This document shows, piece after piece, positions 2,764 through 43,100 of a DNA stretch of 64,000 nt (position 1 is the stretch's first letter; every line of letters starts with the position of its first letter). The DNA comes from Pseudomonadota bacterium (lineage in GTDB: Bacteria > Myxococcota_A > UBA9042 > GCA-2863065), in the NCBI GenBank assembly GCA_947498315.1, contig CANMLD010000002.1:8368-72367 (forward strand), given 5' to 3'. Both the position numbers and the translations under genes were made by a program. The notes under the pieces are model-generated. The model worked only from the letters and a program-made list of their open reading frames with translations. It searched no databases and was not told the DNA's origin.

Positions 2764-2880
2764 GGATAACGATCTCTAGCACCGGGGGGCGGTTGTCCAC
2801 CCCCGGGGCGCGTGCTACAACCACAGCGCTCGTCTGGAGCGTCACGCCGTCGTGCCGCTCTAACGCCACACCACAAAATC

Positions 2881-5800
2881 ATGCCCTCTGGAGAGCCGCC
2901 GATGGACATCGCCGAGATGCGGGACGCGATTGCCAAGAACCCGACGGACGCCGTGACGTTCGAGAAGCTCCAGAACGCGCTTCTGGACGAGCGAAAGCTC
3001 CCGGAGCTCAAGGCAGTCTACGAGTCGGTGTTCCCAGCGATCAAGGATTCTCCCGACAAGGAGAAGATCCTCCGCCTCGTAGACAACGCCGCGCGCCTCT
3101 ATGACGACGAGGGCATTAAGCACTGGCTCAACGCCCAGCTAGGGATCCTCTATTGGCGTGTACTCGACAGCCTTGATCGCGCTGAGGTCTATTTCCGCCG
3201 CGTACAAGATGCCGCGGGCCACTCGGGCGGCATGGTCGGTGAGTTCTATATCGAGTTCTACGCGCGCCGTGACAATTGGCGCCGTCTCGAAGAGCTCTTT
3301 CAGAAGCAGGGCCTCGAGGACATCGAGATCAAGCGGAAGCTCGCGGTCATCGCGGAGGAGCGCGACAAGAAGGACAAGGCGCTCGCCTTCTGGCAGGAGG
3401 TCTACAACTACGATCCCTCCGACGAGACCGTCTTCGACCGGCTTCGTCAGCTCTACGTGGGCGCCGAAAAGTGGCACAGCCTCGTCGAGCTCCTGAAGAA
3501 GCGTCTTGCCGCTGTCGACGGCGACGTCGCTGCCGCGGTCACGCTTCACTTCGAGATGGTCGGGATCTACCGCGAGTACATCAAGAGCGAGACCAAGGTC
3601 ATCGCCGAGCTCCAAGCGCTGTTGAAGCTCGACCCGTCGAACGCCGATGCGCTCGACCAACTCGAGCAGCTCTATGAGGGCATGAAGCGCTGGCCGGACC
3701 TCGTGCGCGTCCTTCAAGAGCGCATCGTCCATGCCACCGGCGAGACGAAGCTCGGTCTCCACGCCCGAATCGCGTCGATCATGCTCGAGCGCTTCTCGAA
3801 TGCGTCGGAAGCGATAAAGCACTATCAGGCCATCCTCGAGCTCGACGGGCAGAACCTCGACGCCATCCGGAAACTCAAGGAACTCTACGAGCAACGGAAG
3901 ACGTGGGAGCAGTACGTCGAAGTCGCGCAGCTCGAGATCCGTCTCGCGGGCGGGTCGCCACAGGACCGAACGAACTCCCTCATCCAACTCGCCGGGCTCG
4001 CCAGCGAGAAGATCCGGGTCCCGCGTATCGCGGTCTCCCTCTGGGAGCAGATCCTCGAGACCGATCCGACGCACGCAGACGCCCTCGCTCAACTCGAGCA
4101 ACTCTATGAGCGCGACAAGGCGTACGACAAGCTCGCCGACATCATCTCTGCCCGCGCTGATCAGACCTCGGACGTCGCGGCACAGGTCGCGCTTCTCGAG
4201 AAGTTGGGCGCGGTCATCTCGACTCGCTTGAAGGACGAAGAGCGCACAGCGGACGTCTGGCGCCGGCTCCTCGCGATCCAGACCGGCCACAAGAAGGCCT
4301 TCGACGAGCTCCGCAAGCGCTACCTTGCGGCATCGGACTTCGACGCGCTCGAAGGGCTGTATCGCCAGCATGGGACCCTCTCCGAGCTCACGCGCGCCCT
4401 CGAAGCGCAGGTGAAGTCCGAGTCGGACACGGGCAAGATCTCGCTATTGCAGCGCATCGCCGGTCTCCGCCGCGAAGAAGGAAACGCGCCGAAGGCGATC
4501 GCGGCCCTCGAAGAGATCCTGGCCCTCGACTCGCAGAACGCCGCCGCCGCTAGGGCCCTCATCCCGGATTACGCGTCGCTCGGCCAGTGGGACAAGCTTG
4601 CAGGCGCCTACGACGTCGTGCTCGGCGCTACCGAAGACGCCGCCACGCGCCGTCCCATTCTCGAGTCCAAGGCTCGAATCGCGGAGACCCAGCTCGGCGA
4701 CAGCAACGCCGCCTACTTCTGCCTCGTCGAGTGCCTCCGCAACGCGCCTGGTGACACCGACTTGCGTAGCGAGCTCGACCGTCTCGCCCAGGCCAGCGAC
4801 AACCTCGAAGGCTTCGCCGAGGTCCTCGAGGAGGCCCTCGAGCTCCTCGACGAATCGTCTCCAGAGGTGCTCCGAACCACGCTCCGAGTCGCCGAGATAT
4901 GGCACGGCCTCGGCAGCCCCGGACGCGCGCTCGGTCACTACGCCCGCGTCGTTCAGGTGTTGCAGCCCGGTCACACGGGCGCCCTCGCCGCGATGGAAGC
5001 CATCTATCGCGAGACGGGCCAGTGGGATGAGCTCCTCGAGCTCCTCCAGGACAAGCAGAACGGCAGCAACCTCGACGCCGAGGGGCAGAAGTCGCTGCGG
5101 TTCGAGATCGCGGCTGTGTGCCGCGACAAGCTCGGTCGTGCGGAAGATGCGATGCGCGTCTACCGCGAGATGATGGATCAGTTCCCGGACGACCTCCGCA
5201 TCTACGACGAGCTGGCCCAACTCCACCTTCTGGCCGAAGACTGGATCGAGCTCATCTCGGTGCTCGAGCGCAAGCTCGGGGCGCTCAGCGACCGCTCCGA
5301 CACGAAGCCGCAGGCTATCTCGGAGCTCCGCGCTCGCCTCGGCCTTGAACACGTGCGCTTCGGAGAGTCGGCTCGCGCCGTCGAGTACTTCATCGACGCC
5401 CTCAACGCCGACGGCAACAACGACGTCGCCATCGCACAGCTCACCATCCTCATGGCTCAGTCGGCGCTCGAGCGTACCGTGGCTGAGGCCCTCGAACCGG
5501 TCTGGGTACGCCGTGGCGACGATAAACAACTCGCCGCGGTCATCGAGATCCAGCTGCGCTACGCGCGCGACAAGAAGGCCAAGAAGAAGCTCATCGAGCG
5601 CTTGGTCGTCCTTTACCGCGACAAGATTGCCGATGACGCAGCCGCTCTCGATGCGGCCAGCCGCCTCTTCGTGCTCGATCCCGAGGCAGGCTTTGCCAAG
5701 GGCGCTCGCCCCACTGTCGAGGCCATCGCCCTCAAGCTCGGTGCTCACGCCGCGCTCGCGGACCTCTACGAGCAGAACGTCGATCGTATCGACGAGCCTG

Positions 5801-8800
5801 CCACGCGCCTCATCGTCCACAACGCCATCGCGCGAAGTGTCTACGAACACGGCAGCGACTTCATCCGAGCCGAGAAGCACTTCCGCTCCATCCTGGACAT
5901 CGACGGGGGCCATGCGGACACCCTCGACGCGCTCGAAGAGCTCTACGCCGTTACAGAGCAATACGAACTGCTCCTCGAGATCGTGCTTAAAAAGGAGCAG
6001 CTCGCTACGAGCGACGACGCTCGGGTCGCGTTCCGCTTCCAGACCGCCACACTCCTCGCCGAGCAGCTCGGCCGAATTCCGGAAGCGATCGACGACCTTC
6101 GCCGGATCCTGGGCATCGAACCCGGCAATGCGCAAGCGCTCGCTCGCCTCGACGACCTCTACACCCGCACGGAAGCCTGGCTAGACCTCCACGACATCCT
6201 GCGTTCGCGCATCGATGGCGCCGCGTCCGACGATGACCGGGTCTCGCTCTTGGTGCGCCTCGCCGAGCTGCAGGAGACCCGGCTCGACATGCCGACGGAC
6301 GCGGTCATCACGTACGCCGACGTCATCGCCATCGACTTCGTGCAGCCGGACGCCGTGGGCGCCCTCGAGCGTCTCTTCGCGGAGCCTGACTACGCAGGGA
6401 TTATCGCGCCCATCCTCGAGGCTACCTACCAAGCCACCGGTCGATGGGACGGCCTCGTGGCGGTCTACACCGAGATGGAGCGTGCCGCCGAGACCACTGA
6501 CGAGAAGGTTGACCTCCAGTTCAAGATCGCCGGCCTCTACGAAGGCCCGGGCCAGTCGCCGGCGCAGGCGTATCAACACCTCGGTGAAGCGTACCGCTAC
6601 GATCCGGCGCGCGAGACCACGGTCAAGGAGCTCATCCGCCTCGCAGACGTCCTGGGCGATCAGCGCGGTCTCACGGTCTTGCTCGCAGAGAAGGTCGAAC
6701 TCATCGCGGACGAGACCCGCCGTCGAGAGACCCAGCGCGTCATCGCTCAAACCCTCGCGGACAAAGTCGGCGACGCACCGAAGGCCATCGAAGCGTATCG
6801 GGCCGTACTCGATCTCGCGCCGGGCGATGTGCAAGCGACCGACGCCCTCATCACGCTCTACCGCAAGACCGAGCAATACCCTCAGCTCGTCGACATGCTG
6901 CGCCAACGTGCAGGTCTCGAGAACGACGTCAAGCGCAAGAAGGCGCTCCTCGCCGAAGCGGGCGAGATCGCCTCGGCCGCCATCGGCGCAGAAGAAGCCA
7001 TCTCGGTCTACGAGTCCGCGCTCGAGGTCGATCCGAACGACGTCGCCACCCTCGACGCGCTTGCTCGGGTCTACGAGGAGACCGAAGCCTGGAACGACCT
7101 CTGCCGTATCCTTGGCCGCAAGATCGAGCTCGAAAGCGACCTCGAGACGAAGAAGGCCTACGCCCGAGAGCTCGCCGGCGTTCAGGAGCAGCGGATCGAA
7201 GACCCGGACAGCGCCATCGAGACGCAGCGGGTCATCCTCGGATGGGACGAGGCGGACCTCGCCGCGCTCGCGTCACTCGACGATCTCTTCGGACTCACCG
7301 AGCGCTGGATCGAGCTCATCGAGATCATCGATCGCCAAAACGCGCTCGGCGCGGGCGACAGCGCTGACTTGATGCTCCGTAAAGCCTCGGTGTGGAACGA
7401 GAAAGTCGGCGATACGGGCCAAGCCATCAACGTCCTGTCGGCCATCCTCACCGAACGTCCGCAAGAGACGCGCGCCATCGCGGCGCTCGAAGCCATCGTC
7501 CGCGACAGCGACGAGCGTGAAGCCGCCTACGCGGCTCTCCGGCCGGTTCTAGAGAATAGTGGAGCCTGGTCCGCCATCCTCGGCCTCTCCGAGATCTTGG
7601 TCTCAACTCGCGATATCCCTGCGGCCCAAGTGCAGGCCCTCGCCGACATGGCGACGATCGCCGAGGCGCGGCTCAACGCGCCAGAGAACGCCTTCAGCTT
7701 CTGGGGTCGTGCCCTCGCCCTTGACGGAGACGACACCGACGCCATGGCGGCGGTCGAGCGGCTTGCGAAGGCTCACGGACTCTGGGAGGCGCTCGTCGAG
7801 CTGCTCGACGCTGCCGCCAAGCGCAACGACGATCCGTCTCGCAGCGTCACCCTGCGTCTGCGCGCAGCTGACGTCTTGAAGGACGAGATCGGCGCTTACG
7901 ACCGCGCCATCGTCTCTTATAACGTGGTCCTCCAAGACGACGATCAGAACGCGACGGCGCTCCTGGCCCTCGACGAGCTGTATACCGCGACCGACGCGCA
8001 TGCGGAACTGCCTGGCATCCTCGCCCGTCGCATCGACATCACGACCGACGCCGCCGAAAAGATCGGGCTCTACTTCCGCCTCGCTGACGTCGCGGAGAAC
8101 CGACTCGGCGAGTCCGACCGCCCCGTCGAGTGCTTCCGCGAGATCTTCTACCTGAACTCCAACAATGCAGCCGCGATCTCCGAACTCGAGCGGCTCATGC
8201 GCACGACAGGGCACCGTCTCGAGATCGCAGACCTGCTCGAGCCGGTGTACGCGGACCGCGGCCAGTGGCCGCAGCTCCTCGCGCTCCTCGACCTGCGCCT
8301 CGACTTGGCGAAGGACCCGACCGACCGCCTCGACCTGCTCCGCCGGATGGCATCGGTCAGCCTCGACCAGCTTGGGAACAAGGGCGACGCCCTTCACCGC
8401 TACAGCTTGGCCTTCAAGATCGATCCCGGCGACGACAGCCTCCTCGAACGCGTGGAGACCCTCGCCTCCGAGACCGGCGACTACGCCTCCCTGAAGGAGA
8501 CGCTTCTCGCCGTTGCAATCGGTCTTCAGGAGAAATCCCGCAAAATCGAGCTCTGGCACAAGGCTGCTCTGGTCGTTATGAACCAGCTCGCCGATAAGGA
8601 CCAGGGCGAGCGTATCTACGAGTACGTCCTCAATGAGGACCAGTCGGATCTGACGGCGCTCCGCGCCCTCGACACGCTCTACGTCCAGCAGAACCGCTGG
8701 ACCGAGCTCGACGTATGCCTTCAGAGCCAAGTCGCCGCCGTCGAGTTCGACGACGAACGGGTCGGGCTGCTCCTCCGCCTCGGCGAGCTGTGCACGGGCA

Positions 8801-11800
8801 AACTCGGCCGTCCCGCCGACGCCATCGCTGCCTACGTCGATGCCTTGGCTTACAACGAGACCGAACCGACGGCGCTCGCCGCGCTCAACACACTCTATCG
8901 TGACGTGGGTGAGTGGGAGCCGCTCTTCGACATCGCGACGCGTCAGTCGGAGATCGCGTCGGACGACGCCACGCGTCTCGCCCACAAGCGAGACTTGGCC
9001 GAGCTCGCCGAGAACAAGCTCGGACGTGCCGAGGACGCTCTCCACCTCTGGGAGGACGTGCTCTCGATCACCCCGGCCGACCTCGACGCCATCCGCCACA
9101 TCGAGCGTCTCCACAGGGGCGCCGGCAACGACGAGGGTGTGGCCGAAGCCATGGAACGCGAGCTCCGTACGCTCGGCGGGGAGGACCCCGTCCGTGCATC
9201 GGATCTCTACCGCGAGTTGGGTCGCCTCTTCGCAGGCAAGCTCGACGACCCCTTCAAGGCGCAGGAGGCCTGGGAGCGTCTCCTCGACCTCGAGGACAAC
9301 GACGTCGAGGCACTCAAGGCCCTCGCGAAGCTGCACGAAGACGGGTCGAACCTCGAGGCACTCGCCAAGACGCTCGAGAAGATGGTCGCGTCGCGTCGCT
9401 TCTTCGGCGACGAGGTGCTCGCTCTCTGGCAACAGCTCGCCCGGCTCTACACCGAGTCGGTGCCCGAGCCGCAGAACGCCATCCGCGCGTGGAGCCAAGT
9501 CCGCGACGTTCGTCCGGACGATCTCGAAGCGGTTCGCGCTCTAGAGACGCTCTACAGCGATGGCGGACAGTGGGCGCCGGCGGTGGCCATGATGACCGTC
9601 AAGGCTGGCCTCGTGCCGGCGGCCGAGGCGGTCGGCGTCTGGTTCGCGATCGGTGAGGCGCAGCAGTTCCAGCTGAGCGACCCGGCGTCAGCGGCGGTCT
9701 CGTACGCCCGGGTGCTCGAGCTCGACAACGCACATCAAGATGCCGGAGAGCGCCTCGAAGGCATCTACCAGGACTCTGGACGCTTCGCTGACCTCGCCAA
9801 GCTCCTCGAAGCCCGCGCGGATCTCCTCGACCGTCCCGAAGACAAGCGCGACCTCTTCGTGCGGCTGGCCGACCTCTACGAGACGCGCCTCGGCGACCTC
9901 GCGGCGGCGCTCGTCTATACCATCGCAGCGCACGATCAAAAGCACGGTGACCTCGATATCGTCCTCTCTATCGAGCGGATCGCCACGGTGATCGAGCAGT
10001 GGAGCGATCTGCACGAGCAGTACGCCTTCGCGCTCGACGCGACCACCGACGAGACCGACCGCATCGACATCGCGCTCCGCGATGCGCGGCTTCTCGAGTC
10101 CAAGCTTCAGGACTCGCAGGGGGCCATCGAGCGCTACCGGCATGTCTTGGAGCTCAACCCGGATCACGCTGAGGCGATGCTCGAGATCGCGGGTCTTTAC
10201 GAGAAGACCGGAGCCTGGGAAGACCTCGTCGCGATCCTCGAGCGTCGCTTCGGGTCGTCCAACGACTCGTTCGAGCGCGGTGAGATCGGCGTCAAGATCG
10301 GCTCGGTGCTTCGTGACCAGCTCGGCGCCATCGACCGTGCCGTCGATGCCTTCAAACGGGTCTTGGACCTCGGTGTGGCCGAACAGCGCGTCATCGAGGC
10401 CCTCGAAGCGATCTTCCGCAGCGCGTCCCGCTACGACGACCTCGTGGAGATCCTCTTCGCCAAGGCGAATTCGGGCCTCGGCAACGAGACGGCGCTCAAG
10501 CTCGAGATCGGCTCCATCCGTGAAGAGAAGCTGTCCGACCCGCGTGGCGCCATCGACATCTACGAGTCGATCCTGAGCCTCGATGAGTCGAATCGCGACT
10601 CGCTCGACCGCTTGATGAGTCTCTACGCCGACGTGAACGACATGGAGCGTCTCACGAGCGTCTACGAGCGGCTCCTCCACGCGGCCGAGTCGGACGAGGA
10701 ACAGATCACCTACTGCGAGGCGCTGGCCGTCCTCCAGAAAGACGTCCACCAAAACCCGGAAGCGGCAGCGGACTACTACTTCCGCATCCTCACCATCGAC
10801 ACGAAGCACTCGGACGCCATGGCGGCGCTCGAGGAGCTTTACGAGACGATGGAGCGCTGGGAGGACCTCATCGAGATCTTCCGCCGGCGCCTAGAGCAGT
10901 CGGATGACACGACGACGTGGTCCTCCTACAAGGAGAAGTCGGCGCGCCTCTACTCCGAGAAGCTTCAGGATCTCGGCAGCGCCATCGACGCCTACCAGCA
11001 GCTCATCGATCGCGTCCCGGGGAACCGCGCCGCGCTCGACGCGCTCGAGGCGCTCTACCGCGCTGACGCACACTGGGAGCGCGTGCAGGACGTGCTCGCG
11101 CAGAAGGCCGAGTACACCAAGGGACCCGAGCGGCTCGCGCTGCTCATCGATCGCGCTCGCATCGTGCTCGAAGAGCTGTCCGATCCGGATGGTGCGCTCG
11201 AGATCGCACGTCGCGCCGAAGTCGAGGCGCCGAGTGACGCGACCATCTCCAGCTTGCTCGAGGCGGTCTACGGGCGACGCGGCGAGTGGGACCAAGTGGT
11301 TCAGGTCCTCAGCCGACGCGGCTCTCACGCCCGGTCGGACGCCGATTCGGCCGCCGCCGAAGTCGCGATCGCAAAGGTCTACGAAGAGAAGCTGCACGAC
11401 GGCGAAGCGGCCATTCGGCACTATGAGCGGGCGCTCGAGTTGGTCCCATCCGACGTTCAGACGTCGGAGCGCCTCGCAGGCCTCTACGTCATCGCGGAGG
11501 ACTGGATCAAGGCGGAGGCACTCCTGTCTCTCATCGTTCGTCGGGCTCCGACCGACGCCGAACCTGAGTGGATGAGTCGCACGTACAAGAACCTGGGTCT
11601 CTCGCTCGAGAACATGCTCCGCCCCTCGGAGGCCCTCGAGGCGTACGAGCAGGCGCACAACTTCGCCCCAGAGGACATGGAGATCCTGAAGGCGCTGGGC
11701 CGCGCGGCCGAAGCGACCGGAGACTTTGGCACGGCGGAGAAGGTCTTCACACAGCTCATCGAAGCGGCGCGTCTCGACGCGACCGAAGCGGAGCTCGTGA

Positions 11801-13644
11801 ATCTCTACAAGACCCTCGGTCAAATGGCGTTCAAGGCTGGCAAGGTCGACAAGGCTCGCGAGTACCTCGAGAAGACGGTGTCGCTCCAGCCGGGCAGCAC
11901 GGACGCGCTCCGCAACCTCATGTCGCTGTGCGAGCAGCAGGGTTACTGGCAGGGCGTCGTGGAGTACGGCGTCGAGCTTCGGGACATCCTCACCGAGCCC
12001 ATGGAGAAGTTCGAGCTTCAGCTCCGCCTCGGTGACGCTTACCTGAAGCACCTGAAAGACATCGACGAGGCCGCTCGAGCATACCGCACAGCGCTCGACT
12101 TCCAGCCGGAGTCGAAGGGTGCGCACTTCAAGATCTTCCAGGTTCTCGTCGATGCCGAGCGCTACGACGAAGCCGTCGAGATTCTAGAGAAGCTGGTTAC
12201 GCTCGAAGCCGACCCGAAGCGCAAGGCACAGTACCTCGGAGCGGTCGGCGACATCTTCCGCGAGAAGAAGGGCGACCTCATCGGGTCGGTCGATTACTAC
12301 GAGCGCGCGCTCGACTACGACTCGAGCCTGCTCAAGCTCTTCCGTAGCATCGATGAGATCCTGACCCAGGCGAAGGACTGGCGTCGCCTGGAGAAGGCGT
12401 ACCGCAACATGTTCAAGCGCGTGGCGGACGACGAGACGCAGGAGCAGCTCCAGTACAAGTTGCTCTTCCTCCTCGGCGAGATCTACCGGACGCGGCTCGC
12501 GAGGCCGGACGCATCCAAGGCAGCGTTCGAGAACGCGCTCGAGCGTAAGCCGCGTGACGCCAAGTCGCTGCAGATCCTGGCGGAGATGTACGAGGCGGAC
12601 GAGCAGTACGAGGACGCCGTCCGCTGTAAGCGCCGTCTGCTGGAGATCGAGCCGGGTAACGTCGACCACTACCGCGATTCGAAGCGCCTCATGTTCGCGC
12701 TGAAGGATCTCGACGGAGCGTGGGTGGCCTGCGCGGTTCTGACGCTCCTCGGTCAGGCCAACGAGAAGGAAGAGGCGACCTACAATCAGCACGCGCCGAA
12801 GCAGATCGCCGAAGACGCGCTGACGCCGACGACCAACCTGTGGGGTCAGCTATTCTCAAAGGGCGAAGAACTCCTGATCGGTCACATCTTCTGGACCATC
12901 TACCAGGGCATCGGTTCCCAGCTCGCTACCAAGGAGTTGAAGGACTACGGGCTGAAGAAGAAGAGCCAGATCGATCCGAACGAGAAAGAGCTGCTCATGC
13001 ACGTCTACCGTCACACGGTGCGCGTGCTCGGGCTCAACCCGCCGCCGGAGCTCTACCACTCGCCCAAGACGCCTGGCTTGCAGCTCGCCGAGATCTTGCC
13101 GCCGGTCCTTTTGGTTGGCGACAATGTCCGACAGGGACAGACCGACCAGGAGCTCGGCTTCGTGCTCGGCAAGTCTCTGACGTACTTCCACAATTTGCAT
13201 CTCGCCGTGGCGCTCTCTCCACTCGAGACGCTCGAGACGCTCTTCAACGCGGCGGTCAAGCTGTTCGTGCCGTCCCACGACGTCGGCGCGCTCGAACAGA
13301 ACGAGGCGTTCCAGGAGCTCCTCGTAGCCCTCGGGGGCATGCCGCCGCAGCTCCGTCAGGGCCTGCAGCGCTACGTCGGCGAGTACATCGAGCGCGGCCA
13401 AAAGGCGAACCTCACGCGTTGGCTGAACCAGATCGAGCTGACGGCCAACCACGTCGGGTTGCTCATGTGCAACGACCCGCACGTCGCAGGCCAGATCATC
13501 AAGAACGAAGCGCATCGCACGCTCTTCCAGGCGCCTAGCCGGCTCGCGACCCGCGACAAGCTCGTCGATCTCGCCGTCTACTCGTTGTCTGAGGAGTACC
13601 TCGGCCTACGCAAGACGCTCGGGATCGCGATCGAGGCTGAGTAG
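2881..13644 (+). CDS. Giant (~3,590 aa) cytoplasmic TPR-like repeat protein with a ~480-aa non-repeat C-terminal domain; alternative upstream start at 2812
   Basis: Single uninterrupted 10.8-kb ORF. About 45 units of a ~76-78-aa double-helical-hairpin repeat with consensus ...Y..(V/I)LElDP.N..AL.aLe.LY......W..L..iL... No signal peptide. The last ~480 aa (from ~LKDLDGAWVACAVLTLLGQANEKEE) lose the periodicity. Confidence 0.8.
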   Translation: MPSGEPPMDIAEMRDAIAKNPTDAVTFEKLQNALLDERKLPELKAVYESVFPAIKDSPDKEKILRLVDNAARLYDDEGIKHWLNAQLGILYWRVLDSLDRAEVYFRRVQDAAGHSGGMVGEFYIEFYARRDNWRRLEELFQKQGLEDIEIKRKLAVIAEERDKKDKALAFWQEVYNYDPSDETVFDRLRQLYVGAEKWHSLVELLKKRLAAVDGDVAAAVTLHFEMVGIYREYIKSETKVIAELQALLKLDPSNADALDQLEQLYEGMKRWPDLVRVLQERIVHATGETKLGLHARIASIMLERFSNASEAIKHYQAILELDGQNLDAIRKLKELYEQRKTWEQYVEVAQLEIRLAGGSPQDRTNSLIQLAGLASEKIRVPRIAVSLWEQILETDPTHADALAQLEQLYERDKAYDKLADIISARADQTSDVAAQVALLEKLGAVISTRLKDEERTADVWRRLLAIQTGHKKAFDELRKRYLAASDFDALEGLYRQHGTLSELTRALEAQVKSESDTGKISLLQRIAGLRREEGNAPKAIAALEEILALDSQNAAAARALIPDYASLGQWDKLAGAYDVVLGATEDAATRRPILESKARIAETQLGDSNAAYFCLVECLRNAPGDTDLRSELDRLAQASDNLEGFAEVLEEALELLDESSPEVLRTTLRVAEIWHGLGSPGRALGHYARVVQVLQPGHTGALAAMEAIYRETGQWDELLELLQDKQNGSNLDAEGQKSLRFEIAAVCRDKLGRAEDAMRVYREMMDQFPDDLRIYDELAQLHLLAEDWIELISVLERKLGALSDRSDTKPQAISELRARLGLEHVRFGESARAVEYFIDALNADGNNDVAIAQLTILMAQSALERTVAEALEPVWVRRGDDKQLAAVIEIQLRYARDKKAKKKLIERLVVLYRDKIADDAAALDAASRLFVLDPEAGFAKGARPTVEAIALKLGAHAALADLYEQNVDRIDEPATRLIVHNAIARSVYEHGSDFIRAEKHFRSILDIDGGHADTLDALEELYAVTEQYELLLEIVLKKEQLATSDDARVAFRFQTATLLAEQLGRIPEAIDDLRRILGIEPGNAQALARLDDLYTRTEAWLDLHDILRSRIDGAASDDDRVSLLVRLAELQETRLDMPTDAVITYADVIAIDFVQPDAVGALERLFAEPDYAGIIAPILEATYQATGRWDGLVAVYTEMERAAETTDEKVDLQFKIAGLYEGPGQSPAQAYQHLGEAYRYDPARETTVKELIRLADVLGDQRGLTVLLAEKVELIADETRRRETQRVIAQTLADKVGDAPKAIEAYRAVLDLAPGDVQATDALITLYRKTEQYPQLVDMLRQRAGLENDVKRKKALLAEAGEIASAAIGAEEAISVYESALEVDPNDVATLDALARVYEETEAWNDLCRILGRKIELESDLETKKAYARELAGVQEQRIEDPDSAIETQRVILGWDEADLAALASLDDLFGLTERWIELIEIIDRQNALGAGDSADLMLRKASVWNEKVGDTGQAINVLSAILTERPQETRAIAALEAIVRDSDEREAAYAALRPVLENSGAWSAILGLSEILVSTRDIPAAQVQALADMATIAEARLNAPENAFSFWGRALALDGDDTDAMAAVERLAKAHGLWEALVELLDAAAKRNDDPSRSVTLRLRAADVLKDEIGAYDRAIVSYNVVLQDDDQNATALLALDELYTATDAHAELPGILARRIDITTDAAEKIGLYFRLADVAENRLGESDRPVECFREIFYLNSNNAAAISELERLMRTTGHRLEIADLLEPVYADRGQWPQLLALLDLRLDLAKDPTDRLDLLRRMASVSLDQLGNKGDALHRYSLAFKIDPGDDSLLERVETLASETGDYASLKETLLAVAIGLQEKSRKIELWHKAALVVMNQLADKDQGERIYEYVLNEDQSDLTALRALDTLYVQQNRWTELDVCLQSQVAAVEFDDERVGLLLRLGELCTGKLGRPADAIAAYVDALAYNETEPTALAALNTLYRDVGEWEPLFDIATRQSEIASDDATRLAHKRDLAELAENKLGRAEDALHLWEDVLSITPADLDAIRHIERLHRGAGNDEGVAEAMERELRTLGGEDPVRASDLYRELGRLFAGKLDDPFKAQEAWERLLDLEDNDVEALKALAKLHEDGSNLEALAKTLEKMVASRRFFGDEVLALWQQLARLYTESVPEPQNAIRAWSQVRDVRPDDLEAVRALETLYSDGGQWAPAVAMMTVKAGLVPAAEAVGVWFAIGEAQQFQLSDPASAAVSYARVLELDNAHQDAGERLEGIYQDSGRFADLAKLLEARADLLDRPEDKRDLFVRLADLYETRLGDLAAALVYTIAAHDQKHGDLDIVLSIERIATVIEQWSDLHEQYAFALDATTDETDRIDIALRDARLLESKLQDSQGAIERYRHVLELNPDHAEAMLEIAGLYEKTGAWEDLVAILERRFGSSNDSFERGEIGVKIGSVLRDQLGAIDRAVDAFKRVLDLGVAEQRVIEALEAIFRSASRYDDLVEILFAKANSGLGNETALKLEIGSIREEKLSDPRGAIDIYESILSLDESNRDSLDRLMSLYADVNDMERLTSVYERLLHAAESDEEQITYCEALAVLQKDVHQNPEAAADYYFRILTIDTKHSDAMAALEELYETMERWEDLIEIFRRRLEQSDDTTTWSSYKEKSARLYSEKLQDLGSAIDAYQQLIDRVPGNRAALDALEALYRADAHWERVQDVLAQKAEYTKGPERLALLIDRARIVLEELSDPDGALEIARRAEVEAPSDATISSLLEAVYGRRGEWDQVVQVLSRRGSHARSDADSAAAEVAIAKVYEEKLHDGEAAIRHYERALELVPSDVQTSERLAGLYVIAEDWIKAEALLSLIVRRAPTDAEPEWMSRTYKNLGLSLENMLRPSEALEAYEQAHNFAPEDMEILKALGRAAEATGDFGTAEKVFTQLIEAARLDATEAELVNLYKTLGQMAFKAGKVDKAREYLEKTVSLQPGSTDALRNLMSLCEQQGYWQGVVEYGVELRDILTEPMEKFELQLRLGDAYLKHLKDIDEAARAYRTALDFQPESKGAHFKIFQVLVDAERYDEAVEILEKLVTLEADPKRKAQYLGAVGDIFREKKGDLIGSVDYYERALDYDSSLLKLFRSIDEILTQAKDWRRLEKAYRNMFKRVADDETQEQLQYKLLFLLGEIYRTRLARPDASKAAFENALERKPRDAKSLQILAEMYEADEQYEDAVRCKRRLLEIEPGNVDHYRDSKRLMFALKDLDGAWVACAVLTLLGQANEKEEATYNQHAPKQIAEDALTPTTNLWGQLFSKGEELLIGHIFWTIYQGIGSQLATKELKDYGLKKKSQIDPNEKELLMHVYRHTVRVLGLNPPPELYHSPKTPGLQLAEILPPVLLVGDNVRQGQTDQELGFVLGKSLTYFHNLHLAVALSPLETLETLFNAAVKLFVPSHDVGALEQNEAFQELLVALGGMPPQLRQGLQRYVGEYIERGQKANLTRWLNQIELTANHVGLLMCNDPHVAGQIIKNEAHRTLFQAPSRLATRDKLVDLAVYSLSEEYLGLRKTLGIAIEAE

Positions 13645-13659
13645 CTCTGCGCGGTCAGC

Positions 13660-14330
13660 TTTCAGCCCCAGCGCCGGCGTCGCCTGCATCAGCCGGAGGT
13701 GACTCAGGGCTATCAGCGATCAGCGTTCAGCGGTCAGCCCGTCGAGGCCAGGGAAGCGCCTCACCCTGCGAGACATGTAGCCCGGCCGGCCGGCTGGCCG
13801 GAGCTTACCGCCGACCGCTTACCGCTGAGCGCTCAGAAGCAGCACTGAGCGCCGCGCCGGCATCGCCGGCAGCCGCCCCGGACATCGAGTCAGTCATGAG
13901 TCCCAGCCCCCACGCCGGCTGTTGCCGGCGACAGCCGGAGCTAACGCAAGCGCTCAGCCATCAGCCCTCAGCGTTCAGCCAGGCAACGTCCGTGGCTCCC
14001 CTAAGTGAGATGCTACGTCGGCCGGCCAGGGCCGGAGCTTACCGCCGACCGCTGACCGCTGATAGCCCCGGGGCAGGTCTACGCGACGCGCCGGCTCAGC
14101 CGGCAGCAGCCCTGGGAGTCGAGTTAGTTACGAGCGGTCAGCCGGGCAACAACCACGGTACTTCGAGCCGCCGTGTAGGCTCGGCCGGCTGGCCGGAGCT
14201 GGCGGCTGATCGCTGTGCGCTGAACGCTTTCGCGTCGCACCGAGCGCTGCGTCGGTATCGCCGACAGTCGCCCGGGCGTCGGAGTCAGTCACAAGCTGGG
14301 TCGACAGCAGCCGTCCCAGGGACGGCGGCC
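13660..14330. repeat. Intergenic mosaic of ~3 degenerate ~230-bp tandem units with embedded 12-bp inverted repeats and GC palindromes (ggccggccggctggccgg)
   Basis: 'cggccggctggccggagcttaccgccgaccgct' recurs near 13790, 14020 and 14175. 'gggctatcagcg' (13706) and 'cgctgatagccc' (~14057) are an inverted pair, as are 'tcagcggtcagc' (13729) and 'gctgaccgctga' (~14048). 'gagtcagtcatgagtc', 'gagtcgagttagttacgagc' and 'ggagtcagtcacaagc' end each unit. Confidence 0.5.
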
Positions 14331-14341
14331 GACGTGGCTTC

Positions 14342-15142
14342 ATGAGCACCCTCTACGTCGTCGCGACGCCGATCGGAAACCTGGAGGACATCACCCTCCG
14401 GGCCATCCGAACACTGAAGGAGTGTGGAGCTATCCTCGCGGAGGACACGCGCCACTCCCTCGGGCTCCTACAGCACCTCGGGGTGCCAAAGAAGCCCCTC
14501 CACGCCTACCACGACCACAACGAAGCCGAGATGGTCCCGCGCGCCTTGCGCTGGCTCGCTGAGGGCACGACCCTGGCGCTCGTGACCGACGCTGGCACAC
14601 CTGCCATAAGCGACCCGGGCTACCGTCTCGTTCGGGCCGCACGAGACGAGGGGTTCCAGGTCGTGCCAATCCCAGGTGCGTGCGCGGCGGTCGCGGCGCT
14701 CTCCGTAGGAGGGCTCCCCACCGACCGCTTTACCTTCGCCGGATTCCCGCCCAAGAAGGCCGGCGCGCTCGGGCGCTTCTTCGAAGAGCTCGCAGGCAGC
14801 GCTGGCACACTCGTCCTCTACGCGGCCGCCCGAGACGTCGTGGAGGTCCTCCAAGCCGCCATAGCTTCCCGGGGCGACACGGACGTCGCCATCTTCCGCG
14901 AGCTCACCAAGACCTTCGAGGAAGTCAGCCGAGGTCCCGCCAGCGTCGTCATCGCTGACTGGACGACGACCCCTCGAAAAGGAGAAGTAACCCTCCTCTT
15001 GGGCGAGCCCGCCTCCCTCAATTGGGACGACGACACCCTTCGCGCCATGCTCGGAAAGGGCAGCCTCGACGACGTACGCGCGGCCACCGGGGTCAGCAAG
15101 AAGCGGCTCTACTCCCTCAAGTTAGGGCTCGGTCGAAAATAA
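14342..15142 (+). CDS. rsmI: 16S rRNA (cytidine1402-2'-O)-methyltransferase RsmI
   Basis: N-terminus LYVVATPIGNLEDITLRAIRTLKECGAILAEDTRHS and the motifs TDAGTPAISDPG and PIPGACA are typical of the RsmI/tetrapyrrole-methylase fold. Confidence 0.85.
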   Translation: MSTLYVVATPIGNLEDITLRAIRTLKECGAILAEDTRHSLGLLQHLGVPKKPLHAYHDHNEAEMVPRALRWLAEGTTLALVTDAGTPAISDPGYRLVRAARDEGFQVVPIPGACAAVAALSVGGLPTDRFTFAGFPPKKAGALGRFFEELAGSAGTLVLYAAARDVVEVLQAAIASRGDTDVAIFRELTKTFEEVSRGPASVVIADWTTTPRKGEVTLLLGEPASLNWDDDTLRAMLGKGSLDDVRAATGVSKKRLYSLKLGLGRK

Positions 15143-17893: not shown

Positions 17894-18817
17894 TTACTCG
17901 GCAGCGGGGGCCTCGCCGTCGCCTGGCGCGGGTGGCGCCTTCGGCCCTTCGGCACAATGGGCGGCGATCTTCTCGCACAGCTCGGCCGGTGCGTCGCTCT
18001 CCTCACAGTGCGCCAGCTTCTCTTCGCACTTCTTCGCAAACGCGGCTTCGGCCGATGACTTCAGGCAGTCGCGCGCTTCGGTCGCACAGTCGGCGGGTAC
18101 GCCGCCGTCCGTGACGCAGGCATCGAGGTCATCGATGCAGGCCTTGACGACCTCCTGGTGGTGTTCGCACTTGGCCTTGGCCTTCCCGGCCGCCTTCATG
18201 ATCTTGCCGCAACCGGCCTTCATCGGGCCGCCATTGGGGCCAGCGTCGTCGGGCAGTTCGCCTTCGGGCAGCTCGCCTGCTGTGGGCGGTGCATCGCCAC
18301 CTTCCGGGGGCGGGGGCGGTGCATCGCCACCCTCCGGAGGCGGGGGCGGTGCATCGCCACCTTCCGGGGGCGGGGGCGGTGCATCGCCACTCTCCGGGGC
18401 GCCCTCCGTCGGCGGCCCGTTCTTGGGGGGCTTTCCACCTCCGGGTTTACCCGCGGCCTCCCCGTCCGAACCGGCGAGCTCATCCGTGCTCATGGCTGGG
18501 GGCGCTTCGCCGGCCTTGCAGGCCTTCACGGCCTCCTTCAGCTTCTCGAGCTTCGGGGGCTTGGGTGCGCATGCCTTCAGCGCGTCATGGCAGTCCTCGC
18601 CCCCATCGGCGACGCACGCGGCGAAGTCCTCGAGGCAGCCGCCCCCCTGTTCTTCGAGCTCACCGAGGCCCTCTTGCGCGGCCACGACGGCAGCGAGCGC
18701 CGACTCGGTCTCCGAGACCGGAGCGAGCTCGCCGGTGGCCGAACAGCCGGCCATCAGGCCCGCAGCGATGAAGGAGCGGAGGATCGAACGGGAGAAGCTG
18801 GCGAAGTTGCGGGTCAT
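17894..18817 (-). CDS. Cys-rich lipoprotein with an internally duplicated Cx6C-V(A/T)DGG-x-C-x6-C motif flanking a (PPPPPEGGDA)n proline-rich linker
   Basis: Lipobox LMAGCS. N-terminal CLEDFAACVADGGEDCHDALKAC mirrors C-terminal CIDDLDACVTDGGVPADCATEARDC. 16 Cys with alternating x6/x9 spacing. Four exact 10-aa repeats. Confidence 0.5.
   Translation of the reverse strand: MTRNFASFSRSILRSFIAAGLMAGCSATGELAPVSETESALAAVVAAQEGLGELEEQGGGCLEDFAACVADGGEDCHDALKACAPKPPKLEKLKEAVKACKAGEAPPAMSTDELAGSDGEAAGKPGGGKPPKNGPPTEGAPESGDAPPPPPEGGDAPPPPPEGGDAPPPPPEGGDAPPTAGELPEGELPDDAGPNGGPMKAGCGKIMKAAGKAKAKCEHHQEVVKACIDDLDACVTDGGVPADCATEARDCLKSSAEAAFAKKCEEKLAHCEESDAPAELCEKIAAHCAEGPKAPPAPGDGEAPAAE
18285..18404. repeat. 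Four perfect 30-bp tandem repeats (ggcggtgcatcgccacc(t/c)tccgg(g/a)ggcgggg) encoding the PPPPPEGGDA repeat of the lipoprotein on the minus strand
   Basis: Copies start at 18285, 18315, 18345 and 18375. The units abut with no spacers, so this is not a CRISPR array. Confidence 0.8.
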
Positions 18818-22678: not shown

Positions 22679-23052
22679 GAGATGCGGACTATCAGGAAAG
22701 GTCGGCTTGGGGAAGTTCAGCCAGCATCGCGCCTCTAGGAGCCTGCTGCGTTTCTCCCGTCGCCGGCCTTCGCGCTTCCCCTCGATAGCGGCGTCAGATG
22801 TCTGCGATACGTCCTCACGTACCTTTTGGTACGCTCCGGGCGTTTCTCGACATCTTCCTTGCTCTCGAAGGGAATCGCTTCGGCCTGCTCGGTCCGAAAA
22901 ACAGCAGGCTCCTATGACGCAGGCTGGTCGAAGTTCGCCGACATCGCTCCGGGTCGTTGTCCCCACGTCTTGACGATGCCCCTGGTCATCGTCTCAGCAC
23001 GCTCCCAGGGCAGGCGTCGACGTGCCCCGGCCGAGCCGCTAAGCTCTCGCGC

Positions 23053-40199: not shown

Positions 40200-43100
40200 A
40201 TGATCCGAAACCACCGGCCCCGTCATACCGTCTTGACCTCTCGATTCGTGCTCACCGATTGGGTGGCCCGAACTTCAGCGCTCTGGCACGTCGGGATCGC
40301 CATTCTCGTGGTGGGTTGCGGCGAGATCATCGTCCCAACCGACCCGGACACATCGACGAGCGCTGATGAGCCAGTCTTTACGAACCCTGGGCCTCAAGAA
40401 GCCATCGAGGGTGTCTCTTTGGCACTTCAGCTCAGCGCGACAGACCCGGGTGGTGGCAGCCTCGGCTATTCTCTGGAGTCGGGGCCCGACACGGCGGCCA
40501 TGTCGCCTCAAGGTCGCTTCACGTGGACCCCGGGCGCCGACGTCTCGACCCCTGCGGCCGATCAGACCGTCACCGTTACCGTTGCTGCCACCAACGCGGC
40601 TGGCTTGAAGGGGACCTTGGATCTCGACGTCACCGTACTCAACAACTCAGATGACGACGACTTGCCCGACTATCTCGATGAGGACGACGACAACGATGAC
40701 CTCACCGACGTTCAGGAGGGCGTCAAGAAGACCGACCCTACGCTGCCGGACACTGACGGAGACTCCATTGGTGACGCGACTGACCTGTGCCCGACGACCT
40801 CCGACAAGGAGCAGAAGGATACCGACGGAGATGACCTCGGTGACGCCTGTGATCCCGACGATGACGCTGACGGCACTCCAGATGCCGACGACAACTGCCC
40901 ACTCGTCGTCAACCCCCCGGTTGCGACCCCAGGGGGAGGGCAAGCACAGCCCGACTTCGACGAAGACGGCCTCGGTGATGCCTGCGATGCTGATGCTGAC
41001 GGTGACGACGTCGAAGACGACTCGGACAACTGTCCCGGCGTAGCCAACACCGCGGGCCCTGGAGGGCAGCCGGACCTGAATGGCGACGGCGAGGGTGACG
41101 CGTGTGATCTAGACGACGACGGTGATCTCATCCCAGACGGCGCTGACAACTGTCCAGAGGTCATCAACTCGAACCAGGGCGACAACGACGACGACGAACT
41201 CGGTGACGTCTGCGACACCGACGACGACAACGACGGCGTCGTCGACGACAACGACAACTGCCCGATCGACTTTCAGGCCAGTCAGAAGGACACCGATGGC
41301 GATGGGGAAGGCGATGAGTGCGACGTCTGCGTTACCAGCACGACGAACCTCGACGCCGACTCGGATGGGGTCTGCGACGACGACGACAACTGCCTCGGGC
41401 TGAACAGCGCGGACCAAACCGACAACGACGACGACGGCCAGGGCGATCCGTGCGACACGGATGATGACGCAGACGGCGTTCCGGACATGAACGACAACTG
41501 TAACCTAGTGATGAACGCGCTGCAGCAGGACTGTAACAACGACAAGGTCGGCGACGCGTGCACGCCGGACGATGACGGCGACGGCGTCTCCGATGTCAAT
41601 GACAACTGCGTCTGCGCTCAGAACGCTGACCAGAGCAACTGCGACAATGACGACGTCGGCGACGCGTGTGACGACGACATCGACGGAGACAACGCGACGG
41701 AAGCGCTCGACAATTGCCCCGGCTGCGCAGTCAACCCGGAACAGGCCGACACGAACTCCGACGACCAAGGCGACGCGTGCGATCCAGATGACGACGGGGA
41801 CCTCGTCCTCGACGCTGACGACAACTGCCCGTTGCGGGACAACCCCAACCAGACGAACTCCGACGCAGACCCGAATGGTGACGCCTGTGATCTCGACGAC
41901 GACGACGATGGGCTCGCCGACGAAGACGACAACTGCCCGACCATCGTCAATCTCGACCAAGCCGACTTTGACGACGACGGAGCAGGCGACGCCTGTGATC
42001 CCGACGACGACGGCGACGACCGAAACGACGATGTGGACAACTGCCCCCGAGTTGCCAATCCCATCCAGACGAACATCGACCAAGACTTAGTCGGTGACGT
42101 GTGTGATCCCGTTCTGAGGCTACCGCCCGAGGTGGCGTCGTCGAGCGAGTCGGTCAGGGCGGACTCCCGTGGGGGCGTCACTGCCATCGCGTTCGGCGGC
42201 CCTGTGCCCTGTGGGGCTTCTCCGGCATGCGGCTCCGCCGGCTACGTCGTCGTCGACCAGGCCGACTATGCCGCCATCGTCCCGGCGTGGATTACGAACA
42301 TGATCGGCCTTGGTGCTGCACACGTCTCCGGTGACCGGGCCGCCTACTTTTCGGGCATTGGCGCGCTCGGCAACGCTTCGCTGACGCGCGTGTTCGAGGG
42401 CAACTCCACCACGCCGTCCATCATCGCGACGGCGCAGTCGCCAAACGTCGTCGACCTTGCCGACGGAAGCGTTCTCGTCTTCACGGACGAAGGCGCGAAC
42501 TCCAAGGTCACGCAGGTCTTCTCTAGCAAAAAGCCGGCCGAGATCCACAAGACGGCGCTCGCCTTCCGAACGTCGCTGAACGACGCCCCATTCGCTCTCG
42601 ACAGTGGGCTCGTATTCGTGCCCTACGAGGTGTCGGCGGCAGGGTCGAAGTTCTCCGTCATGGTCTTCGGGCCAGAAGGGGCAAAGACCGAACCGCTACT
42701 ACCCGCCAGCGGCGTGCCGAACGCGACGAGCCTTGGCTTCGAGTTCATCGACAGGCTTATCGGGACGCCGTGGTGGTGTGTGCGTCGTAGCGGCCAGACC
42801 GAGCTCGTGCACACCACGGCAGCCGCCACGCCGAAGTTCAGCCAAAGCGTGCCCGCGCCCGATTGTGGCGCGCTCTGGTCAGGACAGGCGGACACCGGCG
42901 ATGTCTGGTACGACGCCACCAAGAGCGCTGCCGTGCACGAGGTCGGCCGTATCGACCCTTCGGGCGCCGTCGCGGTCGCGCGGCGCAGCTTCACGTGTGA
43001 CCCAACCGTCTACCTCGTCGGGAAGAGCGCCGCCGTGGTCGCCGACTGTGGCAGCGAGTCGTATGAGCTCGTGGACGCTCAGGCGGGCGTCACCGTGGAT

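Follow-up and report, generated by a model that had tools for sequence, protein, structure and literature searches.

Much is known about small interspersed hairpin repeats (REP, BIME, REPIN, MITE) in enterobacteria, pseudomonads, neisseriae and cyanobacteria; in the literature we found nothing relevant on families of the REP or MITE type in Myxococcota or myxobacteria. The BIME and REP clusters of enterobacteria and pseudomonads are extragenic, non-coding mosaics in which a handful of short, GC-rich modules (palindromes or hairpins) are combined in several ways. They follow stop codons, lie between co-directional genes, occur singly or in clusters, and are present or absent among close relatives. 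All of this also describes a spacer of 697 nucleotides (nt), positions 13645-14341, that runs from the TAG of a giant TPR gene to the ATG of rsmI in a 64-kb stretch of contig CANMLD010000002.1, which we refer to as the window. The spacer is probably a three-copy, head-to-tail cluster (13645-14299) of a lineage-restricted, dispersed and non-coding mosaic repeat, situated after the TPR stop codon and upstream of the remnant of an ancestral spacer of ~70 nt. The cluster works like REP, BIME and REPIN clusters and small MITEs, and we assign it to no named family.

The repeat units are built from two modules, E and Y, in the arrangements Y-E-Y or E-Y. Module E is a long imperfect hairpin of 105-130 nt whose arms are tandem TCAGCGN heptads set against their complement, giving a basal stem of ~22 bp; it reads H+ (one to four heptads), a variable loop of ~40 nt, a CCGG-rich palindrome P, GGAGCT and H- (the complementary heptads). 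Module Y (~50 nt) consists of a linker ending in ...CTGAGCGCC, a 6-bp hairpin GCCGGC-N3-GCCGGC and a tail of the form ...CCGGACATCGAGTCAGTC(A/C)(T/C)GAG, the ending of which may also be given as ...GAGTCAGTCATGAG; after the hairpin the module reads ...CCGGA..TCGAGTCAGTC(A/C)(T/C)GAG. The Y-like variant that is placed before E in full units is called X. The layout in the window is therefore a junction, X1-E1-Y1, X2-E2-Y2, a truncated E3-Y3 and 42 nt of the short-spacer type. The features of the locus, with the evidence for each, are as follows (ORF, open reading frame; TRF, Tandem Repeats Finder; D and I numbers, direct and inverted repeats).

2812..13644, plus strand: gene of the giant TPR protein (3610 aa), ending in TAG at 13642-13644; upstream flank (ORF list)
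13645..14299, plus strand: inserted block of 655 nt, a 9-nt junction (ctctgcgcg) and three head-to-tail units; not in sister lineages
13654..13903, plus strand: unit 1 (Y-like X1, E1, Y1); nhmmer 13654-13897, E 1.4e-23
13654..13708, plus strand: X1, a Y-like module at the 5' end whose hairpin is imperfect, GCCGGC-gtc-GCCTGC (13673-13687); direct-repeat family D2, alignments
13712..13739, plus strand: H1+, four tandem TCAGCGN heptads, left arm of E1; TRF period 7, pattern matches, inverted repeats I1, I8 and I12
13781..13801, no strand: P1, CCGG-rich palindrome (cccggccggccggctggccgg), preceded by GTAG; palindrome I13
13802..13833, plus strand: H1-, agct and heptads complementary to H+, right arm of E1; TRF, repeat and pattern matches, stem pair count
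13854..13903, plus strand: Y1, hairpin GCCGGC-atc-GCCGGC (13856-13870), tail ...ggacatcgagtcagtcATGAGtcc; D2, pattern match with 0 mismatches
13904..14137, plus strand: unit 2 (X2, E2, Y2), 234 nt; nhmmer 13904-14130, E 6.7e-50
13950..13980, plus strand: H2+, heptad array, left arm of E2; TRF, pattern matches, inverted repeat I2
14019..14035, no strand: P2, CCGG-rich palindrome (cggccggccagggccgg); palindrome I14
14036..14067, plus strand: H2-, agct and complementary heptads, right arm of E2; I1, I3, I12, global fold
14088..14137, plus strand: Y2, hairpin GCCGGC-tca-GCCGGC (14090-14104), tail ...gagtcgagttagttacgagcgg; D2, pattern match, alignment
14133..14299, plus strand: unit 3, truncated (one heptad, inner loop, P3, H3-, Y3), ~161 nt; nhmmer 14133-14294 and 14126-14297
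14182..14229, plus strand: P3 palindrome (14182-14196) and H3- heptads (14197-14229); D6, I6, I7, pattern matches
14249..14299, plus strand: Y3, hairpin GTCGGT-atc-GCCGAC (14251-14265), tail ...ggagtcagtcacaagctg; helix 2 pair counts
14300..14341, plus strand: ancestral short-spacer remnant (GGTCGAC...GACGTGGCTTC), 42 nt matching the ends of the relatives' short spacer; comparison with the spacers of L208 and L209 (two sister lineages, see below)
14310-14326: perfect 8-bp hairpin GCCGTCCC-a-GGGACGGC, 15 nt before the rsmI ATG; inverted repeat I11
14342..15142, plus strand: rsmI (16S rRNA C1402 2'-O-methyltransferase family); downstream flank (PF00590, E 8.5e-30)
13896..14345, plus strand: 149-aa ORF, an artefact of an open frame over GC-rich repeats; flat GC content over the three codon positions, no Pfam match
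14128..14349, minus strand: 73-aa ORF, an artefact; no Pfam match, nothing homologous in the six-frame search, absent from the protein collection

Within the 64 kb, repeats, heptads and palindromes are confined to 13645-14300, where they lie far above the shuffled expectation. Three direct copies of a core of 105-110 nt begin at 13787, 14021 and 14182, with 72-78% identity and start-to-start spacings of 234 and 161 nt. An initial annotation of the window had described three tandem units of ~230 bp; three head-to-tail units are indeed present, of unequal lengths (~250, 234 and ~161 nt). The same annotation placed a 33-base GC palindrome in each unit, and here the CCGG-rich part is palindromic while the exact 33-mer is found in unit 1 only (13787-13819). 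The heptad arrays give 14 matches against 0.58 expected, on both strands and all within 13648-14230. The small hairpin GCCGGC-N3-GCCGGC is found in five to six copies in the gap; unit 2 has an X2 hairpin of the GCCGGC-N3-4-GCCGGC type at 13914-13929, and the hairpin of Y3 carries one C-G to T-A compensatory change and one G.U wobble. Both sets of inverted 12-mers that had been reported are real; tcagcggtcagc and gctgaccgctga lie at 13727-13738 and 14051-14062, and wider inverted arms of 39 nt (13700-13738 and 14037-14075) are 82% complementary, and H2- pairs also with H1+ across ~300 nt. A 24-mer, GGCCGGAGCTTACCGCCGACCGCT, is exact in units 1 and 2 (0 expected by chance), and CGGCCGGCTGGCCGGAGCT is common to units 1 and 3.

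How does this anatomy compare with the described families? The mosaic is of the BIME type, with X or Y, H+, P and H- recombined as Y-E-Y, E-Y and Y-Y without E. Unlike BIME and REP clusters, however, the units have no sequence similarity to enterobacterial PU/REP, their long arms are tandem heptads, they stand head-to-tail on one strand rather than in alternating orientation, and their host is an uncultured Myxococcales lineage. Module E resembles the REPINs mobilized by RAYT proteins in being an inverted doublet that forms a hairpin of ~105-130 nt, in occurring in clusters and in showing no target duplication (PMC3116915, PMC3337134). A further likeness is decayed copies beside a near-perfect one (at locus L211, described below). 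As to the conserved GT[AG]G head next to the REP palindrome, a GTAG stands before two of the three window palindromes, namely P1 (13777-13780) and P3 (14175-14178), and is missing from P2 and from the copies at L211, L213 and L215. REPINs are expected in tens to hundreds per genome (PMC3116915, PMC3337134); three loci are documented here. No RAYT gene was seen (PF01797 had no match among the scanned window ORFs or in the precomputed Pfam matches of contigs L120 and L213), and nothing in REPINs corresponds to the direct Y modules on either side of E.

MITEs such as Correia/NEMIS, ERIC/IRU and RU-2 are likewise 160-250 nt long, non-coding, intergenic, hairpin-forming, dispersed and polymorphic between strains, and at times they carry spurious ORFs and adjoin gene starts (PMC2759123). 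The units of the window differ in that their ends, X and Y, are direct repeats rather than terminal inverted repeats, the inverted repeats being internal; moreover, comparison with the empty site in L208 and L209 gives no target-site duplication, and tandem head-to-tail arrays are unusual for DDE-type elements. The PATEs derived from IS200/IS605 also have small, similar hairpins close to either end on one strand (here GCCGGC-N3-4-GCCGGC) and lack both terminal inverted repeats and a target duplication, whereas here no TnpA or TnpB partner was identified and the left flanks of the three loci differ (GCGCG, TACATG, ACGAG), with no tetra- or pentanucleotide in common 5' of the left end. The likeness to PATEs is one of architecture only. 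Like the MIRUs of mycobacteria, the units are intercistronic and tandem, with an open frame that ends on the start of the next gene, but each has three to five times the length of a MIRU, the lengths are not all divisible by 3 and a coding signature is lacking. Finally, the cyanobacterial STRRs also combine intergenic tandem heptamers with hairpins and small nested repeats, although the heptad sequence is unrelated and the phylum is a different one. Similarity to anything known was found by neither Rfam nor blastn. What is unusual is the build: the hairpin arms consist of tandem heptads, and a small GC hairpin module stands on either side in direct copies. The suggestion that this is a REP/BIME-like or MITE-like cluster therefore stands in a functional sense (a dispersed repeat, a polymorphic site and mosaic hairpins), while the evidence does not extend to membership proper of REP/RAYT, BIME or MITE.

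A large non-coding gap is out of the ordinary here, as had been noted: in a rough gene map, the 697 nt form the largest one of the window, three apparently larger gaps being occupied by an 844-aa ORF, a PilZ-domain gene and adk. The exact RsmI protein is found on four contigs of the same species. Because the same spacer is present in independent assemblies, it is not an assembly artefact: it is identical in L120 and, across the portion covered, in L122 and L123, and L121 is 99.8% identical over the 13.2 kb compared.

The same locus was compared in relatives. The close relatives belong to the cluster of RsmI proteins at 90% identity and are labelled Myxococcales bacterium. In L208 (GCA_018780435.1) the order of genes is TPR, rsmI, a lactonase-like gene, Ser_hydrolase and MetRS; the flanks have 85-90% nucleotide identity to the window and the spacer is 70 nt long. 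The spacer of L209 has 78 nt, as has that of the P0001 contig between the called genes. The homology of the window to L208 and L209 ends exactly at 13644 (the TAG) and resumes at 14323 according to BLAST, or at GGTCGAC (14300) by eye. Farther relatives that keep the TPR-rsmI order have spacers of 65 nt (L206) and 42 nt (L207), and in two others (65-67% RsmI identity) a different upstream gene overlaps rsmI. In L211, a third lineage within the cluster, a single E immediately precedes rsmI on a contig of 1 kb. By the nucleotide identity of rsmI, the window, L211 and the L208/L209 pair are roughly equidistant (85-87%), L208 and L209 being 92% identical to each other. The short spacers of L208 and L209 hold one Y-like hairpin with its tail, adjoining the rsmI ATGAGC (nhmmer E 0.097 in a search of 1.7 Mb). 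The array is thus not ancestral in its present form at the TPR-rsmI locus, and one orthologous site is caught filled, single-copy and near-empty among close relatives.

Some details of these contigs are worth recording. The L211 sequence, a Logan contig, starts inside a perfect (AGCGGTC)x3 heptad run (positions 1-25), which points to an assembly interrupted by the repeat and to more copies or a longer array in this genome. In L208, a scaffold gap of 100 N lies just downstream of rsmI (1968-2067), and the intergenic content there is not comparable. The order of a giant TPR gene followed by rsmI reaches relatives with ~50% protein identity, including a TARA ocean contig, and the C-terminal region of the TPR protein is conserved at 49-58% identity; in the window, the TPR Pfam matches fall in the last 499 aa of the giant protein. 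The name rsmI follows the homologues, which are so called by their sources.

Related units are also found at other loci, in metagenomes of the same study. The translation of the open frame was compared in an exhaustive HMMER scan with 1.84 billion representative proteins, and just two proteins were found, P0149 and P0148, both of them ORFs over other copies of the repeat. P0149 lies on L213, another contig (16.5 kb) of the ENA sample that yielded L120. Its repeat stretch, made up of X, Y, a truncated E and a second Y, stands between convergent genes, for a Dicty_CTDC-repeat protein and a 1990-aa MopE-motif protein, and one module is near-identical to Y1. P0148 lies on L214 and L215, from two sibling samples, where one full unit separates an MFS transporter gene from the gene for a 298-aa protein. 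Both the L213 and the L214/L215 loci recur in further NCBI and JGI assemblies. The repeat is therefore dispersed, with related units at two further, unrelated loci. The repeat has been shown to be restricted to a small clade of uncultured Myxococcales, polymorphic at an orthologous site and present elsewhere.

The identities between units, our main result, bear on the history of the array. Unit 2 and the solo unit of L215 are 87.6% identical and unit 1 and L213b 86.7%, whereas units 1 and 2 share 71% and unit 3, the most diverged, 59-68% with all others. Since identity is higher to unlinked loci than to neighbours in the array, the three units are different subfamilies and no recent local triplication; by these values (71% against 87-88%), the earlier picture of a tandem duplication puts the emphasis in the wrong place. 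Modules are also gained and lost as blocks, because L213a is a unit with E precisely missing and the junction Y-tail|CGGTCAGCC (Y|cggtcagcc) is common to window units 2/3 and L213. Y modules as simple copies of the ancestral rsmI spacer were considered and dropped as a sufficient explanation, a near-identical Y being present at L213 and L215.

Furthermore, the gap region is non-coding. GC content by codon position is flat in the spacer, at 0.64-0.74 in every frame, in contrast to the genes (0.73-0.88 at third and 0.36-0.57 at second positions). Neither of the two ORFs in the gap has a Pfam match, and a six-frame translation of the spacer, run as one query against 5.8 billion proteins, returned nothing at E<=1e-3. 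Between unit 2 and the L215 unit, substitutions are spread 11:10:9 over the codon positions. The two ORFs had been called repeat artefacts from the outset, and they are: they show no coding GC pattern in any frame, and the only relatives of the ORF at 13896..14345, for which a protein homologue would have argued, are ORFs over other copies of the repeat. In public annotation such ORFs appear as an 80-aa 'hypothetical protein' (P0148, P0150) and a 194-aa one (P0149, P0151) that continues into the antisense of the convergent gene; the repeat sites in question are L215 429-671, L214 199-441 and L213 5289-5873. The repeat family explains these spurious proteins (P0148-P0151), the oversized gap in a compact genome and the break of the L211 contig.

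We can propose how such a cluster might arise. Non-autonomous units would be copied between intergenic sites by a trans-acting function that recognizes their hairpins, and new copies would land beside existing ones, so that clusters grow. Recombination between direct Y copies, or across the hairpin, could then remove E and leave a solo Y or units without E. As a conjecture, a single-strand mode of the HUH/Y1 type (IS200/IS605 or RAYT-like) fits better than a MITE moved by a DDE transposase, because there are no terminal inverted repeats, no target duplication and like-oriented subterminal hairpins at both ends. Any effect on the host would most likely be incidental, in that the TPR-rsmI transcript contains a co-directional spacer rich in hairpins, through which its read-through or its stability could change.

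Several points weigh against a mobile, dispersed repeat. No transposase was found among the window ORFs that were scanned with Pfam, which were not all of them. Neither a target duplication nor a conserved target sequence is definable, although with flanks that have diverged by 10-15% in L208 and L209, short target duplications could be blurred. The documented loci number just three, with seven to eight units, and two came to light through ORFs of gene callers. The rest of the window (~63 kb), the rest of L213 (15 kb) and 8 kb of L208 gave no further copy, and a strict 25-base pattern gave 0 matches in JGI metagenomes, a pattern that misses the L211 copy too (AGCT instead of CGCT). The assignment of L213 and L215 to the genome of the window is presumptive, being based on samples or study in common, on GC content and on the similarity of the repeats. 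The 'empty' spacers of L208 and L209 already hold a Y-like module, and part of the family may stem from the TPR-rsmI locus itself, having spread by recombination instead of transposition. A point in favour of our reading comes from the conspecific L121, which differs from the window at 23 positions: 7 of them lie within the 697-nt spacer (P 1.3e-4), and three of these seven match the state of other family members, which suggests that the spacer may be under relaxed constraint or subject to conversion. A caveat is that this enrichment of single-nucleotide polymorphisms (SNPs) depends on a contig with 3.8x coverage.

Other searches for copies ended elsewhere. A scan of a genome collection with the pattern GGCCGGAGCTNNCNGCNGANCGCT gave 119 loci, all of them genes for non-ribosomal peptide synthetase (NRPS) adenylation domains from Myxococcota, Acidobacteriota, Gemmatimonadota and actinomycetes, and was rejected as an accidental codon match. 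The repeat core GGCCGGAGCT..C.GC.GA.CGCT (13796-13819, 14030-14053 and 14191-14214) happens to equal the NRPS adenylation-domain codons for G-RPELTAERF. A search of metagenomes with RsmI was dominated by the universal PIGNLEDI motif and returned no close relative, the best match being 55% identical. Nothing was found by blastn against plasmids and phages or by two pattern scans of viral contigs.

The alternative that survives best, though we regard it as unlikely, is that the units are a selected cis-acting RNA: an mRNA stabilizer, a partial terminator or attenuator, or a translation-initiation cassette in which the Y tail supplies GGAG...ATG. The stems are maintained, with some compensatory changes. 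With the heptad stem (22 bp) and the Y stem (6 bp) taken together, 87% of the cells pair in six copies, against 15-50% with the partners slid; the H+/H- heptad stem alone reaches 85.6%. Five stem pairs have changed on both sides (1 in 500 shuffles), e.g. GTCGGT/GCCGAC in Y3. The structure was derived from one of the sequences tested, which makes this pairing evidence moderate. The copy at L211 is a near-perfect hairpin (-67.5 kcal/mol, z -5.6), while the E copies of the window fold weakly (z -2.1, -0.4 and -1.6) and a whole solo unit folds no better than shuffled sequence, which argues against a structured element. The entire 697 nt fold better than shuffles (z -3.6 and -4.4) because the arms of different units pair together. 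The units follow the orientation of the upstream gene at all three loci, but one orientation at three loci has a chance probability of ~1/4.

A role in starting translation would be consistent with the Y tail, which ends in CATGAG and in L215 provides the ATG that is the called start of the 298-aa gene, and with the Y-like spacer of L208 and L209, which adjoins the rsmI ATGAGC. Against this, the L213 copy lies between convergent genes, where a role in starting translation is meaningless, and the N-terminal extensions of RsmI vary freely among relatives. The array is also missing from sister lineages with the same gene pair, which weakens the case for a selected element. At gathering score, Rfam matched just two tRNAs in the whole window, and at E<=1 it matched nothing in 13500-14500; a scan for promoters and terminators found no such site within the gap. 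Taking these results together with the single units that fold like shuffles, a dedicated sRNA or attenuator role, which the initial annotation had raised, is not supported.

It is quite improbable, in our view, that the Y-E units are a previously unknown element mobilized as a single strand (of the HUH/Y1 type), which inserts without target duplication beside its own 3' end or before start codons and whose 3' tail (GGAG..N11..ATGAG) donates a ribosome-binding region and a start codon. The L215 gene and the clade-specific ATGAGC start of rsmI fit the start-donating part of this proposal. Y tails end in CATGAG in unit 1, L213b and L215, and the sites at which a Y tail and a start codon are associated are L215 655-672, window 13890-13903 and 14336-14347, and L208 1150-1165. 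In L215, the gene that starts at the Y-tail ATG encodes a lipoprotein-like N-terminus (MSAPKAGLITTSSLAFLLGVC). In the clade of the window, rsmI starts with ATGAGC right after a Y-like spacer, giving an MST- extension that is missing in some relatives. The element may have donated these start codons, or the CATGAG match may be a coincidence, which is possible because the N-terminal lengths of RsmI vary. If the proposal is true, the Y-E unit would be a mobile translation-initiation cassette and not inert junk. Only if the link to start codons, or a new mobilizing enzyme, were confirmed would the family open up a new question in biology.

Very unlikely, and largely refuted, is a purely local origin, in which a spacer of ~70 nt with a Y-like hairpin was amplified in place by slipped-strand events, tandem duplication and inversion and is now decaying, with neither mobility nor function. 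The Y-like hairpin and tail in the short spacers of L208 and L209 mean that Y could be native, heptad arrays are prone to slippage (1 to 4 per arm), the window copies fold poorly (z -0.4 to -2.1) and the SNP density is high. However, related units stand at two non-homologous loci, where they are 87-88% identical to individual window units that share 71% among themselves, and the third lineage, L211, has an E. A small protein, i.e. the 149-aa ORF or a frame of 232 codons coupled in translation to rsmI through an ATGA overlap in the manner of MIRUs, is hardly credible: frame +2 is open through all 697 nt and its TGA overlaps the rsmI ATG, the 80-aa ORF of the L215 unit likewise ends on an ATGA at the start of the next gene, and the spacing of units 1 and 2 (234 nt) equals 78 codons, but composition and substitutions are flat by codon position, unlike in genes, no Pfam family matches and the only homologues are other repeat copies, unit 3 lies in another phase because 161 is not a multiple of 3, the gene callers of three assemblies called nothing in the gap, and, by our own estimate, an open frame of such length is no rarity at 69% GC if the in-phase repeat is left aside.

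The cluster is thus best explained as a lineage-restricted mosaic repeat, and we finish with minor observations from its surroundings. At the position of the perfect hairpin at 14310-14326, the sister lineages carry CCGGAGG, which is Shine-Dalgarno-like; the lineage of the window has no obvious ribosome-binding site for rsmI. Elsewhere in the window, at 18284-18397, a 30-nt unit (GGGCGGTGCATCGCCACCTTCCGGGGGCGG) is repeated in tandem three to four times, with 94-98% identity, inside a 307-aa ORF on the minus strand (17894..18817) with no Pfam match. An inverted repeat at 22736-22914, with arms of 54 nt that are 72% complementary and 71 nt apart, lies near the divergent junction of a TMEM43-like and an enoyl-CoA hydratase gene. 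The protein encoded at 40200-44057 (1285 aa) contains thrombospondin type 3 repeats, ten in number (PF02412, E 9e-62), and these account for the 108-nt periodicity of the DNA at 40.8-42.0 kb; a TPR protein and SHMT come next.

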